Part shown: positions 20,992 to 28,435 of the stretch, one piece after another | Numbering within the stretch: the first letter of the stretch is position 1 | Layout: each line of letters begins with the position of its first letter | DNA from: a virus | Length of the DNA: 54,823 bases | Direction: 5' to 3' (one strand) | IMG/VR virus record: IMGVR_UViG_3300045988_158467 | Location: 1-54,823 of that record | Program-made: the position numbers and the translations under genes | Notes under the pieces: model-generated | The model's input: the letters and a program-made list of their open reading frames with translations, nothing else | Database searches by the model: none | Told to the model about the DNA's origin: nothing

Positions 20992-21357
20992 ATGACAGCT
21001 ATAAATACATTAGCTTATGCACAAATATTACAACAAGCTTTAGATCAAAAAGCAATACACACTTTATTAACAGGATGGATGGACTCAAATGCAGGACAAG
21101 TAAAATATACAGGTGGAAATGAAATAAAAGTACCTAAAATGTCAGTAGATGGATTAGGAGATTACAACAGAAGTGAAGCAGGAGCAGGATACACTTTAGG
21201 GGCTGTAAATTTAACATACCAAACATTAGAAATGACTCAAGATAGAGGCCGTAAATTCCAATTAGATGCTATGGATGTAGATGAAACTAACTTTGTTGCT
21301 ACTGCTACAAGTGTTATGAATGTCTTCCAAGAAGAGAAAGTCGTGCCAGAAATCGAT
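20992..21357 (+). CDS. major capsid protein, exon 1
   Basis: Follows the scaffold gene with an AGGAGAGG RBS. The ORF stops a few codons after ...EEKVVPEID, and the rest of the protein is 620 nt downstream in frame. Confidence 0.7.
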
Positions 21358-21977
21358 AAATTAAGTGTCGCTTAATATAGTAATATATTAATGAAAAGTT
21401 GGTGAACCTGTAAATGCAGGGTGTGTATACTACGTTTAGTAATTGCAGGATAATGGCAATTAAAGTATATGCTAACTGGGAAAACCTAAGTTATATATTT
21501 AAAATTATGTGTTATCATATATATGAGGGATAATTAAGGAAGTAGCTAGCCTTAATGATAAGAAAGTTATCCGAGCTTTCTTCCCTTTTACTTAATCGGA
21601 TTAATGCTATCGGAGGTGTTATTATTATGGCAGAAAAACTTTCTATTCAACAAGTTAGAAAATTTTGAAATTGTTAAAATGCATGATGAAATTAAAAATA
21701 AATTTTGTGAAGAACATAATATAACACTAATTAGAATCCCTTACTGGGAACGTAAAAATTTAAACATAATACTAAAAAGTATTTTTTAAATATATAATAT
21801 GGCAATCCAGTGCTAAGTCTACTATGTATAGTAGGAAAGTCAAACGACTAAATTGAGTTGAGATACTCTAAGAGGTTCAAGGCGAAATTCCTTGTCCCGT
21901 AGTGCCAACCACCCTTTATAGGGTGATGATATAGTCTACTCCCTTATTTAAATATCGGGAAACCGAGGGTATAAAGA
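21358..21977 (+). mobile_element. Group I intron 2 (in the major capsid gene) with a decayed HEG; boundaries +/-4 nt
   Basis: Guide TAAGT|GTCG (21362-21370) pairs with exon 2 GCTTA (P10) and exon 1 CGAU (P1, with a U:G wobble). P7 halves are ACGACTA (21844-21850) and GATATAGTCT (21928-21937). A TCGG-GAAA-CCGA hairpin is followed by GGGTATAAAGA, as in intron 1. Confidence 0.7.
21627..21789 (+). pseudogene. remnant of a PD-(D/E)xK-type homing endonuclease gene
   Basis: GGAGGTG RBS plus 13 codons (MAEKLSIQQVRKF*). After a frame change, ...DEIKNKFCEEHNITLIRIPYWERKNLNIIL matches the C-terminus of the intron-3 HEG (DNIKSEFAKQYKIKLIRIPYWEFNNIDKIL). The central ~240 codons are missing. Confidence 0.65.
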
Positions 21978-22556
21978 GCTTATAGACTTTCTAAATTAGC
22001 AACTATAGCTATGGCAGTTACAGGAGATGCAAATGTTGAATATGGATATACTCCAGCAGCAGCAACTGTATTAGCTAAAATAAAAGCTGGTATAAAAGTA
22101 ATAAGAGAAAAAGGATATCAAGGACAATTAGTAATACATGCTAACTATGATGTAGTTAATGAACTAGAATTAGCTTTATCAGGTAAAATAGCAACTACTA
22201 CTTTCTCTGTAAATGGAATAGATACACAAGTTCCATCTATAGATCAATGTCCAATAATACCAACTCCTGCAAATAGAATGTACTCAGCTATAACTTTATA
22301 TGATGGAGCAACAAGTGGACAAACAGCAGGAGGATATGTGAAAGGAACTGGAGCAAAAGATGTAAACTTCTTAATAGTTGCTTCAAATGTACCTATAGCA
22401 GTAACTAAACAAGATAAAATGAGAGTATTTTCACCTAATGTAAACCAAGAAGCGAATGCATGGGCTATGGACTACAGAAGATACCATGATTTATTTGTAT
22501 TAGATAATAAAAAAGAATTAGTATTTGCTAATATAAAAGATACTAAAACTGCATAA
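21978..22556 (+). CDS. major capsid protein, exon 2
   Basis: The frame is open from 21975 (RAYRLSKLATIAMAVTGD...). There is no RBS before the track's ATG 22011. It continues the exon 1 protein in frame. Confidence 0.7.
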   Translation, partial: AYRLSKLATIAMAVTGDANVEYGYTPAAATVLAKIKAGIKVIREKGYQGQLVIHANYDVVNELELALSGKIATTTFSVNGIDTQVPSIDQCPIIPTPANRMYSAITLYDGATSGQTAGGYVKGTGAKDVNFLIVASNVPIAVTKQDKMRVFSPNVNQEANAWAMDYRRYHDLFVLDNKKELVFANIKDTKTA

Positions 22557-25692: not shown

Positions 25693-25779
25693 CACAATAG
25701 AAACAAAGAATCAGATGGTTTGTATAATATTCCATAAAATGTCTATAATATAAATAAAGATATTATGGAGGTGTTTTTT

Positions 25780-26604
25780 ATGGAAGAAAGATACGGACAT
25801 TTAACAATTATAGAAGCAACTAAGGAAAGAAAAAATTCTTACGTTGTTTATAAATGTAAATGTGATTGTGGTAATATAGCATATAGAACGAAATCAAGTC
25901 TTAGAACAAGTGTTAAAATATCTAAGAATGGTGGACCTTTTTGTGATGAATGTGCAAAAGCAATAGAAAGACAATCAAATATAAAACATGGAATGTGGGC
26001 TCAAAATGCTAGACTTTATAGGATATGTAAAGGGGCAAAAGGTAGATGTGAAGATCCTAAAAATACTTCATATAAAGATTATGGAGCAAGAGGAATAAAA
26101 TTTAAATTTAATTCTATACAACATATGTATGAATGGTCTTTAGAAAATGGATATGCAGATAATTTAAGTATAGACAGAATAAATAATGATGGTGATTATG
26201 AACCTTCTAATTGTAGATGGGTAGATATATATACTCAAGCTAATAATAAAAGAGATACAGTTCAATTTCATGGGATTAAAGGAACTGAAAATGTAGCAAA
26301 ATACTTAGGAATTTCTGTTAGAAGATTTGCCAATATGTTATATAGAGATAAAATGACATTAGATGAAATATATGAAAAGTCTAAAACCGATCCACTATTC
26401 TATGCTACAAATACAGAGAGAAGATCTTTTGCACAAAGAAAAAGAAAAGATGAATGGAAAATCAATAAAGAAGAAGCTATAGAAATAGTTAACAATATAA
26501 AAAATGGTTCATCTATCAATAGAGAAGCTAATAGAATGAAAGTAGATTTTAAAACAATAAAAACTGCAATAAAAAGACTTGAAGATGGAATATATGATTT
26601 ATAA
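25780..26604 (+). CDS. free-standing HNH (HNH_3/AP2-type) endonuclease
   Basis: ...YKDYGARGIKFKF...LSIDRINNDGDYEPSNCRWVDIYTQANN. ATG 25780 follows GGAGGTG. Inserted between the sheath and tube genes. Confidence 0.7.
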   Translation: MEERYGHLTIIEATKERKNSYVVYKCKCDCGNIAYRTKSSLRTSVKISKNGGPFCDECAKAIERQSNIKHGMWAQNARLYRICKGAKGRCEDPKNTSYKDYGARGIKFKFNSIQHMYEWSLENGYADNLSIDRINNDGDYEPSNCRWVDIYTQANNKRDTVQFHGIKGTENVAKYLGISVRRFANMLYRDKMTLDEIYEKSKTDPLFYATNTERRSFAQRKRKDEWKINKEEAIEIVNNIKNGSSINREANRMKVDFKTIKTAIKRLEDGIYDL

Positions 26605-26667
26605 ACAATTTTTAAGGACTTAATTTTTATTAAGTTCTTTTTTATTTTATATAGGAGGTGTTTTTAA

Positions 26668-26703
26668 TTGAAAGCTAACGAAGTAATAAATGGTACTTGG
26701 GGT
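26668..26703 (+). CDS. tail tube protein (XkdM-like), exon 1 (12 codons, TTG start)
   Basis: AGGAGGTG RBS 7 nt upstream. Encodes MKANEVINGTWG, the conserved N-terminus of XkdM-type tubes. Confidence 0.75.
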
Positions 26704-28051
26704 AAGTGTATTACTTCTATCCAACTTTGCCCCACTAAGTAGAAATATTTAGTTAAAAAACGGGAGAATTCAAAGAAAACCTAAGAATAATAACTATATT
26801 TATGATATAATATAAGTATAGGATAGTTAGGAAAGTCGCGAGTCTTAACGAAAAGGGATTATCCGAAGTCCCCTTCCTATTTATAAGTATTCGGAAATAA
26901 AAAACTATCGGAGGTTTTATTTTTATGAAGAAATACACTTTTGATAAAATAAAAGAAATAGTAGAAAGTAATGGATTTGAATTACTAAACGCAGATGATC
27001 CAAAGTTAAATGCTAAAATTACAATAAAATGTTCTGAAGGACATATAAAAACAGTAACATTTAATAGTTTTCTAAAAAGACCCATCTGTTATAAATGTAA
27101 GCCTCATTGGAATGCTATGAGCGAAAAAGAGTTTTTAGAAAAATTAGCAAATTCTAATACAAATTGCAAATTGATAAGCAAATATACAAAAGCATCTAAT
27201 AAAATGAAATTTAAATGCTTAGGATGCGGTAATAAATTTTATGCTAGAGGACAACATATATTAGATGGACATAAATGCAGAACATGCGCATTATCAGAAT
27301 ATGGAGATAAAAAAAGAAAATCACATGAGGTATTTGAAAATGAAATAAAAGAAAAGTATGGAGATGAATTTATTTTACTATCTGAATATAAAGGGGATAA
27401 AGAAAAGATAAAATGTCTACATACTAAATGTGGTAAAATATCAGAAAAAAATGCAGGAACATTATTAGGAAATGGAGGATGCAAATATTGTAAAGAAAGC
27501 AAAGGAGAAAATGCTATAAAACTATTTCTTGAAAATAATCATATTCAATACGAGAGAGAATATAGAAATAAAAAATGTAAATATAAATATACTTTACCTT
27601 TTGATTTTGCTATATATAAAGATAATAAATTGAAATTTTTAATTGAATATGATGGAGAGCTACATTATAAACCAGGAAGATGGAAAGAAGCTAAAAATAA
27701 ACTTGCTTCTAATTTAATGAAGGACAATATCAAAAGTGAATTTGCCAAACAATATAAAATAAAATTAATAAGAATACCATATTGGGAATTTAATAATATA
27801 GATAAAATATTATATCATGAATTAAGAACTCTTTTATAGGGTTCTTTTTTATTTATGGCAACTTTGAACCGAGCCTAACAAATATCATAAAAGTAGTTAG
27901 GAAGGCGCAACGACTAACTCTTGCGGAAGATAACCAATAATAGAGACACGAGCACCCGTTACCTTACTATTAAGTTAAAGGTAAAGACATAGTCTGAACT
28001 CATGGGAAACCATGAGAAATGTAGAATAAAATGCTACATGATAACAAAATG
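26704..28051 (+). mobile_element. Group I intron 3 (in the tail tube gene) with an intact HEG
   Basis: Guide AACTTT|GCCCCA (26723-26734) pairs with exon 2 GAAGTT (P10, 6 bp) and exon 1 TGGGGU (P1, 6 bp, with a U:G wobble at the splice site). P7 halves are ACGACTA (27910-27916) and GACATAGTCT (27986-27995). A CTCATGG-GAAA-CCATGAG hairpin follows, and the terminal base is G28051. Confidence 0.85.
26925..27839 (+). CDS. intron-encoded homing endonuclease: triple Zn-ribbon N-terminal region plus DUF559/Vsr-like PD-(D/E)xK domain
   Basis: Three C..C/H...C..C modules, then PFDFAIYKDNKLKFLIEYDGELHYKP...KLIRIPYWEF. GGAGGT RBS. Lies wholly within intron 3. Confidence 0.7.
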   Translation: MKKYTFDKIKEIVESNGFELLNADDPKLNAKITIKCSEGHIKTVTFNSFLKRPICYKCKPHWNAMSEKEFLEKLANSNTNCKLISKYTKASNKMKFKCLGCGNKFYARGQHILDGHKCRTCALSEYGDKKRKSHEVFENEIKEKYGDEFILLSEYKGDKEKIKCLHTKCGKISEKNAGTLLGNGGCKYCKESKGENAIKLFLENNHIQYEREYRNKKCKYKYTLPFDFAIYKDNKLKFLIEYDGELHYKPGRWKEAKNKLASNLMKDNIKSEFAKQYKIKLIRIPYWEFNNIDKILYHELRTLL

Positions 28052-28435
28052 GAAGTTTGGATAAATGATGTATTAGTTGATGAAATAGCAGCTTTCCAAG
28101 CCAAAATAGAATTTGACAAAGAAGATATAGATATATGTGGTGAAATGATGACTCAACATAAAATAACTGGATATAGCGGAACTGGCTCTATGACGCTTAA
28201 AAAGACAAACTCAAGAATGATAAAATTGTTAGCTAATTTTATGAAAGATGGTCTAGAACCGGATGTAACAATAGTTGGAAAATTAGCTGACCCAGGTAAT
28301 GGAGGAAGTGAAAGAATAAGTATATCAGGAGTATCCTTTGATGATTTAACTTTGTTTGATTTTGAAGTTAAAAAATTAGGAGAAGTGGAATGCCCATTCA
28401 CTTTTACAAAATATAAATTTATAGATTTAATATAA
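28052..28435 (+). CDS. tail tube protein, exon 2
   Basis: EVWINDVLVDEIAAFQAKIEF...TGSMTLKK... continues exon 1 in frame. The track's ATG 28031 has no RBS and lies inside the intron. Confidence 0.75.
   Translation, partial: EVWINDVLVDEIAAFQAKIEFDKEDIDICGEMMTQHKITGYSGTGSMTLKKTNSRMIKLLANFMKDGLEPDVTIVGKLADPGNGGSERISISGVSFDDLTLFDFEVKKLGEVECPFTFTKYKFIDLI

Follow-up and report, generated by a model that had tools for sequence, protein, structure and literature searches.

Group I introns have been documented in tail-tube, tape-measure, terminase, portal and head genes of phages (PMC2504315; PMC11878797), so that the statement in the first-pass annotation of the present locus that introns are uncommon in virion structural genes was too strong. 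The gene orf142 of phage Twort, since identified as the tail-tube gene, carries three group I introns, and a tail-tube intron is common to prophages of B. weihenstephanensis KBAB4 and B. cereus B4264 (PMC11878797; PMC2504315). The terminase gene of Staphylococcus Kayvirus phages (MSA6, fRuSau02) contains an intron that encodes I-MsaI (PMC5618024), and I-Bth0305I, of the EDxHD family, sits in the recA intron of Bacillus phage 0305phi8-36 (PMC3239194).

The window analysed here is the whole 54,823-nt stretch of IMG/VR virus record IMGVR_UViG_3300045988_158467. Its tail-tube gene appears to be split by a mobile group I intron of an IA-like type, which would splice out of the transcript and encode a homing endonuclease; we put the probability of this reading at about 90%. 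By published description, the Twort and B. cereus-group elements are similar in being in-frame group I introns in the tube gene of a Firmicutes myovirus or prophage, with a stop codon soon after the 5' splice site and a patchy distribution among related phages, whereas the present intron belongs to another, metagenomic phage lineage, is inserted after codon 12 and encodes an I-MsaI-type endonuclease. Since tail-tube group I introns are already known in phages, the intron is an ordinary kind of selfish element, and the current understanding of group I introns is unchanged by these findings. With the Kayvirus intron it shares a location in a late structural or packaging gene, an ORF of the same protein family with the same triple zinc module and PFDF...IEYDG..H motifs, and an upstream TGaTATAAT promoter-like element; it differs in the host gene (tube gene rather than terL) and in the host genus. 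Like I-Bth0305I, the encoded protein is intron-borne, has a C-terminal Vsr-like nuclease domain and is specified by an ORF that interrupts P5, but I-Bth0305I has a NUMOD/HTH N-terminal DNA-binding region in place of zinc modules, there is no detectable sequence similarity, and its structure, 3r3p, lies outside the top 50 fold matches. The features of the locus are as follows.

26654-26658, plus strand: ribosome-binding site GGAGG of the tube gene, read from the sequence; this site and the TTG start are also used by the uninterrupted alleles
26668-26703, plus strand: exon 1 of the tail-tube gene, TTG start, 12 codons, encoding MKANEVINGTWG, last base U26703
26698-26703, plus strand: exon strand of P1, the final 6 nt of exon 1
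26704-28051, plus strand: group I intron, 1348 nt, IA-like, with the endonuclease gene inserted in P5 (RF00028; absent exactly from 12 near-identical alleles)
26723-26734, plus strand: internal guide sequence AACTTTGCCCCA; 26723-26728 pairs with exon 2 (P10), 26729-26734 with exon 1 (P1)
26735-26753, plus strand: P2 hairpin, holding the in-frame stop TAG 26740-26742 (sequence and Rfam alignment of allele L019)
26760-26785, plus strand: 5' strands of P3 (ACGGG, 26760-64), P4 (UUCAAAG, 26769-75) and P5 (CCUAAG, 26780-85), from the Rfam alignment of L019
26803-26811, plus strand: extended -10 promoter-like element TGaTATAAT, putative function, read from the sequence ahead of the endonuclease cassette
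26816-26914, plus strand: structured leader of the endonuclease gene, a three-way junction (covariance model R1, covariation, int-alpA matches of relatives)
26818-22/26876-80, 26827-32/26843-48 and 26852-58/26869-75, plus strand: leader helices P1, P2 and P3
26860-66, plus strand: leader P3 loop UAUCCGA, with complementary UUCGGA downstream at 26890-95
26910-14, plus strand: leader Shine-Dalgarno GGAGG
26925-27839, plus strand: homing-endonuclease gene, 304 aa, with three zinc-finger modules (residues ~1-190) and a PD-(D/E)xK nuclease domain (~190-304)
27824-27846, plus strand: predicted terminator-like hairpin with a T-run; it overlaps the stop codon of the endonuclease gene and lies immediately ahead of the P5 3' strand
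27852-28051, plus strand: 3' ribozyme domain (Rfam matches and covariation)
27852-58, 27862-68 and 27869-27905, plus strand: P5', P4' and P6/P6a
27910-27916 with 27990-27995, plus strand: P7, ACGACUA with UAGUCU; P7.1 at 27918-21/27942-45
27955-59, plus strand: P3'; P8 at 27960-65/27978-83
27999-28016, plus strand: P9, GAAA-capped hairpin; P9.1 at 28019-24/28034-39; terminal G at 28051
28052-28435, plus strand: exon 2 of the tail-tube gene, EVWINDV... through the stop (matches of the spliced product, uninterrupted alleles)

In the proposed mechanism, folding of the late transcript would bring both exon ends into pairing with the guide 26723-26734. P7 would bind an external guanosine, which would attack after U26703, and the freed exon 1 would then attack after G28051. 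Translation of the ligated mRNA, starting at TTG 26668, would yield an XkdM-type tube protein of 139 aa. The P5 loop houses a self-contained cassette of promoter-like -10 element, structured leader, ribosome-binding site and 304-aa ORF, and the terminator-like hairpin 27824-27846 inside the intron could lower read-through into exon 2. During a mixed infection, the endonuclease would cleave tube alleles that lack the intron, near ...ACTTGGGCT-GAAGTTTGG... (here and below the hyphen marks the junction), and repair from the intron-bearing copy would insert the intron together with nearby exon markers.

The TTG start with its ribosome-binding site, the 12-codon exon 1 and the resumption of the tube gene at 28052, all proposed in the first-pass annotation, were each found in place. 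An in-frame TAG (26740-26742) ends the reading of unspliced RNA, and joining of the exons yields 139 aa that match the Pfam DUF2001 (tail tube) profile over positions 3-139 of 139 (E 1.8e-46, 158 bits). The solved XkdM-like tubes 8v3t and 6gkx align with residues 1-139 of the spliced product (E ~1e-41), and both keep the junction motif GTWG-E(V/L)W. In 12 IMG/VR alleles with 95-98% identical DNA the tube gene runs without interruption, and their sequence ...ACTTGGGCT-GAAGTTTGG... spans the junction at exactly the same point. Intron-less alleles come in two variants at this point, TGGGCT-GAAG and TTTGCT-GAAG. The proposal that splicing restores a 139-aa XkdM-like tube ORF is thus borne out by colinearity with uninterrupted homologues and by end-to-end agreement with DUF2001 and the solved tubes. 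Judged on the sequences, the match of coordinates, motifs and predicted spliced product far exceeds chance. The spliced RNA would read ...GGTACTTGGGGT-GAAGTTTGG... at the junction, or ...AATGGTACTTGGGGT-GAAGTTTGGATA... in longer form, and the expected peptides are NGTWGEVWINDV and NGTWGEVWINDVLVDE across the junction and MKANEVINGTWGEVW at the N-terminus. Megablast of the phage collection revealed no cultured close relative of the phage, and a scan with the tube protein of one genome per bacterial species found distant relatives only, with 46-54% identity; identity to a Clostridium MAG was 54%.

The 304-aa ORF matches PHROG 559 over residues 3-301 (E 1.6e-54) and I-MsaI in BLASTP, with 37% identity over 238 aa (E 4e-35); it shows the repeated Cys4 modules of I-MsaI-like proteins. 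Pfam and NCBIfam gave no match for the window's own protein. Among 50 homologues, DUF4379 was found in 40, CapR in 33 and DUF2726 in 20 (E<1e-3), with the DUF4379/CapR zinc modules N-terminal and DUF2726 at the C-terminus; the C-termini of homologues 35-46% identical to the protein match DUF2726 (PF10881) at 25-34 bits, the threshold being 24.7. DUF2726 has been placed in one group with Vsr, 3hrl and 3r3p (PMC3424549). Because the three zinc modules diluted the signal of the full-length model in the fold search, the C-terminal domain was re-modelled alone. The AlphaFold model (pLDDT 92.6, pTM 0.84) consists of a helix, three strands, a helix, a strand and a helix, and its best Foldseek match is Vsr 1cw0 (TM 0.69, probability 0.99), the other top matches, 3hrl (probability 0.99), the R2 RLE domain and TnsA, all having the restriction-endonuclease-like fold. 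Searches of the PDB by phmmer and profile (E<=10) returned noise and zinc-ribbon matches and neither 3r3p (I-Bth0305I) nor 1cw0 (Vsr), and PF11645 (I-Ssp6803I-type) was absent both from the window protein (E<=10) and from the families matched by the homologues (E<=0.001). Homology and modelling support assignment of the ORF to the I-MsaI family, with a triple zinc module and a putative Vsr/DUF2726-like PD-(D/E)xK domain, in agreement with the first-pass annotation, which had proposed a Zn-ribbon plus PD-(D/E)xK endonuclease. This family is widespread, with at least 1500 database matches, I-MsaI included, and it combines a Vsr-like nuclease with zinc-finger modules that elsewhere accompany nucleases of the GIY-YIG type (CapR relatives).

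One could suppose that the intron splices but that the 304-aa protein is maturase-like, only binds DNA or is inactive, the intron being now immobile and merely inherited. This explanation, which we consider improbable, though it is the best of the alternatives, draws on the annotation of the named relative I-MsaI as 'function unknown', on the absence from the literature searched of any assay or biochemical characterisation of a member of the I-MsaI-type family, on CapR, a zinc-module relative that is a domesticated DNA-binding repressor (PMC8096241), and on the weak Foldseek E-values of the nuclease domain (0.02-0.08). Against it, E195, D227, E241, H247 and K270 are invariant in all 50 homologues, down to ~30% identity, and are candidate catalytic residues; D243 and D267 are at least 90% conserved. 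Copies whose protein sequences differ by 5% have also kept an intact ORF.

The distribution of the intron argues against immobility as well, since it occurs patchily among tube genes of 95-98% identity and has exon markers linked to it, the pattern that active homing produces. Intron-bearing loci with an intact endonuclease gene comprise the window and four others (L018, L021-23); the gene is frameshifted in L020 and mostly deleted in L019, and 12 near-identical loci are intron-less. Near-identical metagenomic phages therefore show each stage of the homing cycle, empty, intact, frameshifted and mostly deleted, at one site. Two exon-1 SNPs, GAA at codon 5 and GGT at codon 12, are present in 7/7 intron-bearing and 0/12 intron-less alleles, and the codon-12 G completes P1. 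A free-standing HNH gene adjoins this region and is polymorphic independently.

The catalytic RNA is seen most clearly in L019, a natural allele whose 374-nt intron has lost most of the endonuclease gene. It matches the full RF00028 model (positions 1-253) at 80.7 bits (E 4.3e-21), and the alignment places P1-P9 in the expected order and draws the same P1 with its U:G wobble. The window and L019 are identical in the first 97 intron bases and match at 195/214 positions over the 3' half of the ribozyme and the beginning of exon 2. In a scan of the short region, the window copy itself scored 39.4 bits (E 3.6e-8, 3' half only), below the RF00028 gathering threshold of 50 bits, because the endonuclease cassette, an insert of ~1.07 kb, sits between the P5 strands. 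Rfam reported nothing in gathering mode for the whole window and six intron-bearing loci, nor in an E-value scan of the whole window; the intron was found only by short-region scans. The first-pass annotation had suggested a search with Rfam/Infernal group I models and had held that their failure to fold the region would count against an intron; the default scan is indeed silent and the window copy falls short of the threshold, but the L019 allele is recognised in full, and we take the silence to be an artefact of the search filter, brought about by the ORF in P5. The whole-window negatives are for the same reason uninformative on other introns in the window.

Each of the motifs read earlier for P1, P10, P7, P9 and the terminal G is present in its place. 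P1 consists of 6 bp, UGGGGU (26698-26703) with GCCCCA (26729-26734), and has the wobble U26703:G26729 at the splice site, and P10, GAAGUU (28052-28057) with AACUUU (26723-26728), contains one G:U besides 5 Watson-Crick pairs. In the 3' domain, as compared across 14 related introns, 95.7% of cells are paired, versus 30-41% with the partners slid; 15 pairs are altered on both sides, and the observed covariation score was reached by 0/500 shuffles. Compensatory changes occur in P6a, P7.1 (CUCU/AGAG, UGAG/CUCA, UGGG/CCCA, CGAG/CUCG and AAGG/CCUU), P8, P9 and P9.1, with P7 invariant. A search by nhmmer with the 5' 107 nt of the intron against 61 loci picked by P7/P9 sequence pattern found the same phage lineage only; since the 5' halves of the related introns are too diverged, partners of P3 and P4 were sought by complementarity, and these helices also covary. 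The IA-like assignment refers to the P7.1/P7.2 trait, here one covarying hairpin (27918-27945) between P7 and the P3 3' strand, where a single helix was identified. The full-model match of L019 with the proposed P1 and the covarying helices make it well supported that the insertion is a real group I intron of the self-splicing class, and splicing can be expected from this structure.

A dead intron or other non-splicing insert, leaving either a truncated 134-aa tube protein made from ATG 28031 or a pseudogene in a defective phage, is very unlikely. An ORF with that ATG (28031-28435) does exist and matches DUF2001 at 138 bits, the Rfam score of the window copy lies under the threshold, and endonuclease genes have decayed in some relatives. 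However, ATG 28031 lies in the P9.1 loop without a ribosome-binding site, and the ORF covers DUF2001 positions 15-139 only; positions 3-14 of the profile are missing, and with them the GTWGE motif of the solved tubes. Exon 1, the ribosome-binding site and the TTG start are unchanged across all seven intron-bearing alleles, and every core helix is intact and compensated, which argues for an intron that still splices. Joining of the halves by a group II intron, IStron, insertion sequence or translational bypassing, for which nothing speaks except that the gene is in two pieces, appears effectively refuted by the RF00028 match and covariation. There is no match to RF00029 or to any Rfam family besides group I in 26600-28150 (E<=10), and no reverse transcriptase or transposase ORF was found. 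The insert has group I boundaries, guide sequence, P7 and terminal G, and with 1348 nt it far exceeds the classic T4 gene 60 bypass gap of roughly 50 nt.

Within the intron, the endonuclease gene is preceded by a leader that scores 85.3 bits on covariance model R1, with covariation in alignment A6. The TGaTATAAT element is also found upstream of the leader in relatives; a two-hexamer promoter scan did not pick it up at 26803-26811. The leader motif precedes homing-endonuclease genes of three nuclease families, often within group I introns. The int-alpA RNA (RF02996), an orphan motif, is a candidate structured RNA reported upstream of integrase and alpA genes. Leaders that R1 groups with that of the window match its full 71-position model, namely L223 (R1 58 bits, int-alpA 38.8 bits) and L243 (R1 50 bits, int-alpA 31.9 bits), relative to an int-alpA threshold of 35.8, whereas the window leader has no int-alpA match at E<=10 and stands before a homing-endonuclease gene, as do its relatives. 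The MSA6 copy was not detected by R1. RNAalifold on the MAFFT leader alignment gave only a trivially invariant pairing of loop and Shine-Dalgarno sequence, since the GC-rich members were badly aligned, a fault that the covariance model removed. Folded alone, the window leader is not unusually stable (z = 0.22), and its MFE fold differs from the one supported by covariation. We tentatively propose, at somewhat less than even odds, that the leader is a conserved three-way junction with a pseudoknot, a divergent branch of int-alpA, acting as a general cis-acting switch that limits translation of HNH, GIY-YIG and PD-(D/E)xK homing endonucleases. The invariant UAUCCGA loop would pair either with a nearby UCGGA 'decoy' or with a UCGGA overlapping the Shine-Dalgarno sequence. 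In the literature searched, no structured RNA ahead of homing-endonuclease genes was described; if the proposal is true, it would provide the first functional context for int-alpA and a regulatory module common to phage mobile nuclease genes.

For annotation, the consequence is that the tube gene would be called truncated or missing and that a default Rfam scan overlooks the intron. In related GenBank phage records, split tape-measure, portal and terminase genes are annotated as two separate CDSs. The capsid gene in the window is also split, by a second intron-like insertion (region 21300-22050).

The tail-tube gene is interrupted after its twelfth codon by 1348 nt (26704–28051) that we interpret, with a probability of about 0.9, as a spliced group I intron. 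The first-pass annotation had located the ribosome-binding site, the TTG start, the guide, P1, P10, P7, P9 and the terminal G, and the region reads exactly so:

26654–26658, plus strand: ribosome-binding site GGAGG of the tube gene (read in the sequence)
26668, plus strand: TTG start codon (read in the sequence)
26668–26703, plus strand: exon 1, 12 codons MKANEVINGTWG, ending in U26703 (read in the sequence)
26723–26734, plus strand: guide AACTTTGCCCCA, complementary to both exon ends
26740–26742, plus strand: TAG in the exon 1 frame of unspliced RNA (read in the sequence)
26925–27839, plus strand: intron ORF of 304 aa, matching PHROG 559
27910–27916 and 27990–27995, plus strand: P7 strands ACGACUA and UAGUCU, paired with the usual bulged base
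27999–28016, plus strand: P9, a hairpin with a GAAA cap

P1 is formed by the last six bases of exon 1, UGGGGU, and GCCCCA in the guide, with a U26703:G26729 wobble, and in P10 the six bases 3' of G28051, the final base of the insert, are GAAGUU, complementary to AACUUU of the guide. Joining the exons (26668–26703 and 28052–28435) yields a protein of 139 aa that matches Pfam DUF2001 ('Phage tail tube protein') over positions 3–139 of the 139-position profile (158 bits, E 1.8e-46). Its residues 1–139 align with the Clostridioides difficile tube CD1364 (8v3t) and with an XkdM-like protein (6gkx), both with E ~1e-41, and PBSX XkdM (2guj) is also matched; the junction motif GTWG^E(V/L)W (the caret marks the junction) is kept in 8v3t. 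A search of IMG/VR using the spliced protein gave 61 loci, 12 of which carry an uninterrupted gene, 95–98% identical in DNA and with the same ribosome-binding site and TTG, that reads ...GGTACTTGGGCT^GAAGTTTGGATAAAT...; these alleles settle the question of the real junction and, together with the profile and the solved tubes, agree with the in-frame 139-aa product proposed at first reading. Six more IMG/VR loci, from near-identical phages, have the insertion at the identical position. An ORF starting at ATG 28031 is an unlikely alternative as the tube gene: it covers only DUF2001 positions 15–139 (138 bits), and its ATG is without a ribosome-binding site and sits within a ribozyme hairpin loop.

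Comparison with Rfam covariance models, which had been proposed as a check, gave a divided result. Rfam in default mode reported nothing in the window or the six related loci, and a whole-window scan at E ≤ 0.001 was empty, missing both the tube-gene intron and the intron-like capsid-gene insert, so that the window may hold further introns despite negative whole-window results. A scan restricted to 26600–28150 placed the group I intron model RF00028 at 27768–28016 with 39.4 bits (E 3.6e-8), below the family threshold of 50; P6, P7, P8 and P9 were positioned correctly, and the 5' half was forced onto coding sequence. This low score and misplacement arise because the ~1.07-kb endonuclease cassette parts the P5 strands. 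In one related allele, L019, most of the ORF is lost and the intron is 374 nt long; this copy was missed at the gathering threshold, yet in a scan confined to 441 nt it matches the complete model with 80.7 bits (E 4.3e-21). In this alignment P1 is UUGGGGU^...GCCCCA, followed by P2, P3 (ACGGG/CCCGU), P4 (UCAAAG/CUUUGA), P5, P6, P7, P8 and P9. The window and L019 are identical in the last 14 bases of exon 1 and the first 97 bases of the intron, and 195 of 214 bases agree in the 3' half of the ribozyme plus the first part of exon 2. Several substitutions compensate each other: where the window has CUCU/AGAG in P7.1, L019 has UGAG/CUCA, and a U-A pair in P8 of the window corresponds to C-G in L019. 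The full-model match and the covarying helices thus support the group I interpretation.

The P7–P9 sequence was found in 61 IMG/VR stretches, from many phages and some giant-virus bins. In an alignment of 14 distinct 3' domains sharing the same architecture, standard pairs occupy 95.7% of cells of the named structure, versus 30–41% with partners slid by 1–3 columns, and both sides change in 15 of 38 pairs. The covariation score of 0.406, compared to 0.04–0.10 for slid partners, was reached by none of 500 shuffles; the signal comes mostly from P6a, P7.1, P8 and P9.1, P7 being invariant. P3 and P4, the 5' strands of which were located in related introns via complementarity, also covary:

P3 and P4 strands in the window and in related introns at three of the loci compared
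Window: P3 ACGGG/CCCGU; P4 UUCAAAG/CUUUGAA
L078: P3 UCGGGU/GCCCGA; P4 UGCUGG/UCAGCA
L128: P3 UUGGGU/GCCCGA; P4 UUCUGG/UCAGAA
L082: P3 AUUCGG/CCGAAU; P4 AAUUGG/UCAAUU

In L078, L105 and L128, an insert of 650–800 nt likewise separates the P5 strands. A hairpin between P7 and the P3 3' strand suggests subgroup IA.

The 304-aa ORF itself has no match in Pfam or NCBIfam. Its residues 3–301 match PHROG 559 (E 1.6e-54), further matches, to smaller families, carry the names 'homing endonuclease' and 'intron encoded nuclease', and it shares 37% identity (E 4e-35) with I-MsaI, encoded in a terminase-gene intron of Staphylococcus Kayvirus phages and annotated as of unknown function (PMC5618024). At least 1500 database proteins are related at E ≤ 1e-5. 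Among 50 aligned homologues, DUF4379 (treble-clef zinc finger) occurs in 40, the CapR homology domain in 33 and DUF2726 in 20; in five analysed in detail, zinc and CapR matches lie in N-terminal repeats and DUF2726 is C-terminal, exceeding the Pfam threshold in four. CapR is a cysteine-dependent DNA-binding domain that also occurs in GIY-YIG/T5orf172-type homing endonucleases of vibriophage ICP1 (PMC8096241), while DUF2726 belongs to the PD-(D/E)xK superfamily, one classification grouping it with Vsr, DUF559 and I-Bth0305I (PMC3424549). The predicted structure of the full protein (pLDDT 92.5) comprises three strand-rich zinc-module repeats and a helix–three strands–helix–strand–helix domain. 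This C-terminal domain, modelled separately (pLDDT 92.6, pTM 0.84), had only restriction-endonuclease-fold proteins as top matches in the PDB, at weak E-values (0.02–0.08); the best superposition was with Vsr (1cw0; TM 0.69, rmsd 3.5 Å, probability 0.99), followed by 3hrl and then the restriction-like domain of R2 elements and TnsA. In the homologue alignment E195, D227, E241, H247 and K270 never vary, and D243 and D267 hardly ever do. The initial assignment as zinc ribbon plus PD-(D/E)xK is therefore upheld at the homology and fold level; that the ORF acts as an endonuclease is less certain than the group I intron reading. Membership in the EDxHD (I-Bth0305I) and I-Ssp6803I families was ruled out by sequence; the ORF resembles I-Bth0305I in that both genes are placed in P5 (PMC3239194). 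A terminator-like hairpin with a T-run (27824–27846) overlaps the ORF stop, 5 nt before the P5 3' strand; if it were a working terminator, transcription would end before the ribozyme 3' half and exon 2.

The endonuclease gene is preceded by a structured leader:

26803–26811, plus strand: TGaTATAAT element (from sequence)
26816–26914, plus strand: leader of ~100 nt, between TGaTATAAT and ATG 26925

The leader recurs in the capsid-gene insert of the window (21523–21616), in the compared locus L001 (7547–7641), in Bacillus phage LY4 (1514–1606) and in about 25 loci of IMG/VR; a loosely defined pattern, searched against that database, gave at least 118 stretches, about 43 with the expected stem among the matches listed. 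A covariance model, R1, built from 16 copies, found copies outside the pattern selection in L001 (73.9 bits) and LY4 (61.8 bits). In 27 distinct sequences (GC 29 to 60%), the alignment of which was fitted to the model and so favours the structure, 94.5% of the cells of the three-way junction are paired, 17 of 19 pairs show compensatory changes and the covariation score is 0.667, versus ≤0.20 for slid partners. The P3 loop UAUCCGA is invariant and complementary to a downstream UCGGA (the decoy) and to another UCGGA that overlaps the Shine–Dalgarno sequence. In the alignment, read by eye, the position after the loop core covaries with the base before UCGGA: an A there goes with U in 9 of 9 cases, while a G goes with C in 5, U in 4 and A in 8. 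The P2 loop usually holds a 4–6-nt palindrome (TCGCGA, TAGCTA, TCATGA, CTGCAG). Leaders follow a promoter-like TGnTATAAT motif and precede the start codons of endonuclease genes of the HNH, GIY-YIG and PD-(D/E)xK types, HNH and GIY-YIG having been assigned from motifs in the sequence and a single GenBank annotation, not from profile searches. Two of the leaders match Rfam int-alpA (RF02996), that of locus L223 with 38.8 bits, above the 35.8-bit threshold, and that of L243 with 31.9 bits; the window's own leader had no int-alpA match in the scan of 26600–28150, and its single-sequence folding is unremarkable (z = 0.22). One could speculate that the decoy UCGGA competes with the ribosome-binding site, whereby the leader would control translation of the endonuclease gene.

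Among close relatives, with sheath proteins 97–99.7% identical to that of the window, two elements vary independently, the tube intron and a free-standing gene:

25765–26604: HNH endonuclease gene between the sheath and tube genes (PHROG 374, E 2e-43)

The HNH gene, which is without a structured leader, occurs at full length in some of these phages, survives as its last 34 codons in others and is missing from the rest, and all combinations with the intron are seen. The intron carries an intact endonuclease gene in the window, L018 (100%) and L021–L023 (94.7% protein identity), a frameshifted one in L020 (1349 nt) and a mostly deleted one in L019, and is absent from 12 loci. Exon 1 and the first 44 nt of exon 2 are identical in all seven intron-bearing alleles, in which codon 5 is GAA and codon 12 GGT, whereas all 12 intron-less alleles have AAA and GCT. 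The G of codon 12 completes P1, so the intron-less sequence would give a C:C mismatch. These exon 1 differences could reflect co-conversion accompanying homing, selection for a fully paired P1 or a combination of the two.

An intron-like insertion, possibly a second group I intron, splits another gene:

20992–22556: putative major capsid gene 3' of the scaffold gene, split by ~620 nt according to homology with uninterrupted genes

The insert lies at about 21358–21977, where uninterrupted 314-aa IMG/VR homologues read ...PEVD^AYRLSKL.... It contains a weak RF00028 match (21729–21958, 27 bits, E 1e-4), typical P7 sequences, the motifs CAAACGACUAA and GAUGAUAUAGUCU, and a decayed remnant of the tube-intron endonuclease family (21628–21789). 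Its boundaries are only approximate, because homology places the last base at A21977 rather than at a G; ends in G require an unusual 5' site or changes of 1–4 residues.

The first-pass annotation considered self-splicing introns uncommon in virion structural genes relative to nucleotide-metabolism genes. This view is overstated, as the late genes of phages offer many documented group I introns (PMC2504315; PMC11878797). For the Bacillus cereus group, a survey described one in the prophage tail-tube gene of KBAB4 and B4264, listed several others in genes for tape-measure proteins and terminases, and noted early in-frame stops (PMC2504315), and orf142 of phage Twort, which contains three introns, has since been recognised as the tail-tube gene (PMC11878797). 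The tube-gene intron therefore adds a case to a known kind; the little that goes beyond this is the population snapshot, the leader RNA and an endonuclease family not yet characterised. Pieces of the intron or cassette also match split tape-measure genes of Clostridium perfringens phages, the split portal gene of Streptococcus phage Javan576 (RF00028, 59.8 bits) and the split terminase gene of phage vB_CpeS-1181. All of these split genes are annotated as separate CDSs, two each in the GenBank records of phiCP13O (tape-measure), Javan576 and vB_CpeS-1181, and in LY4 a terminase CDS is followed by an HNH gene. Since the intervening DNA in these four phages matches parts of the intron or cassette, it likely represents unannotated group I introns.
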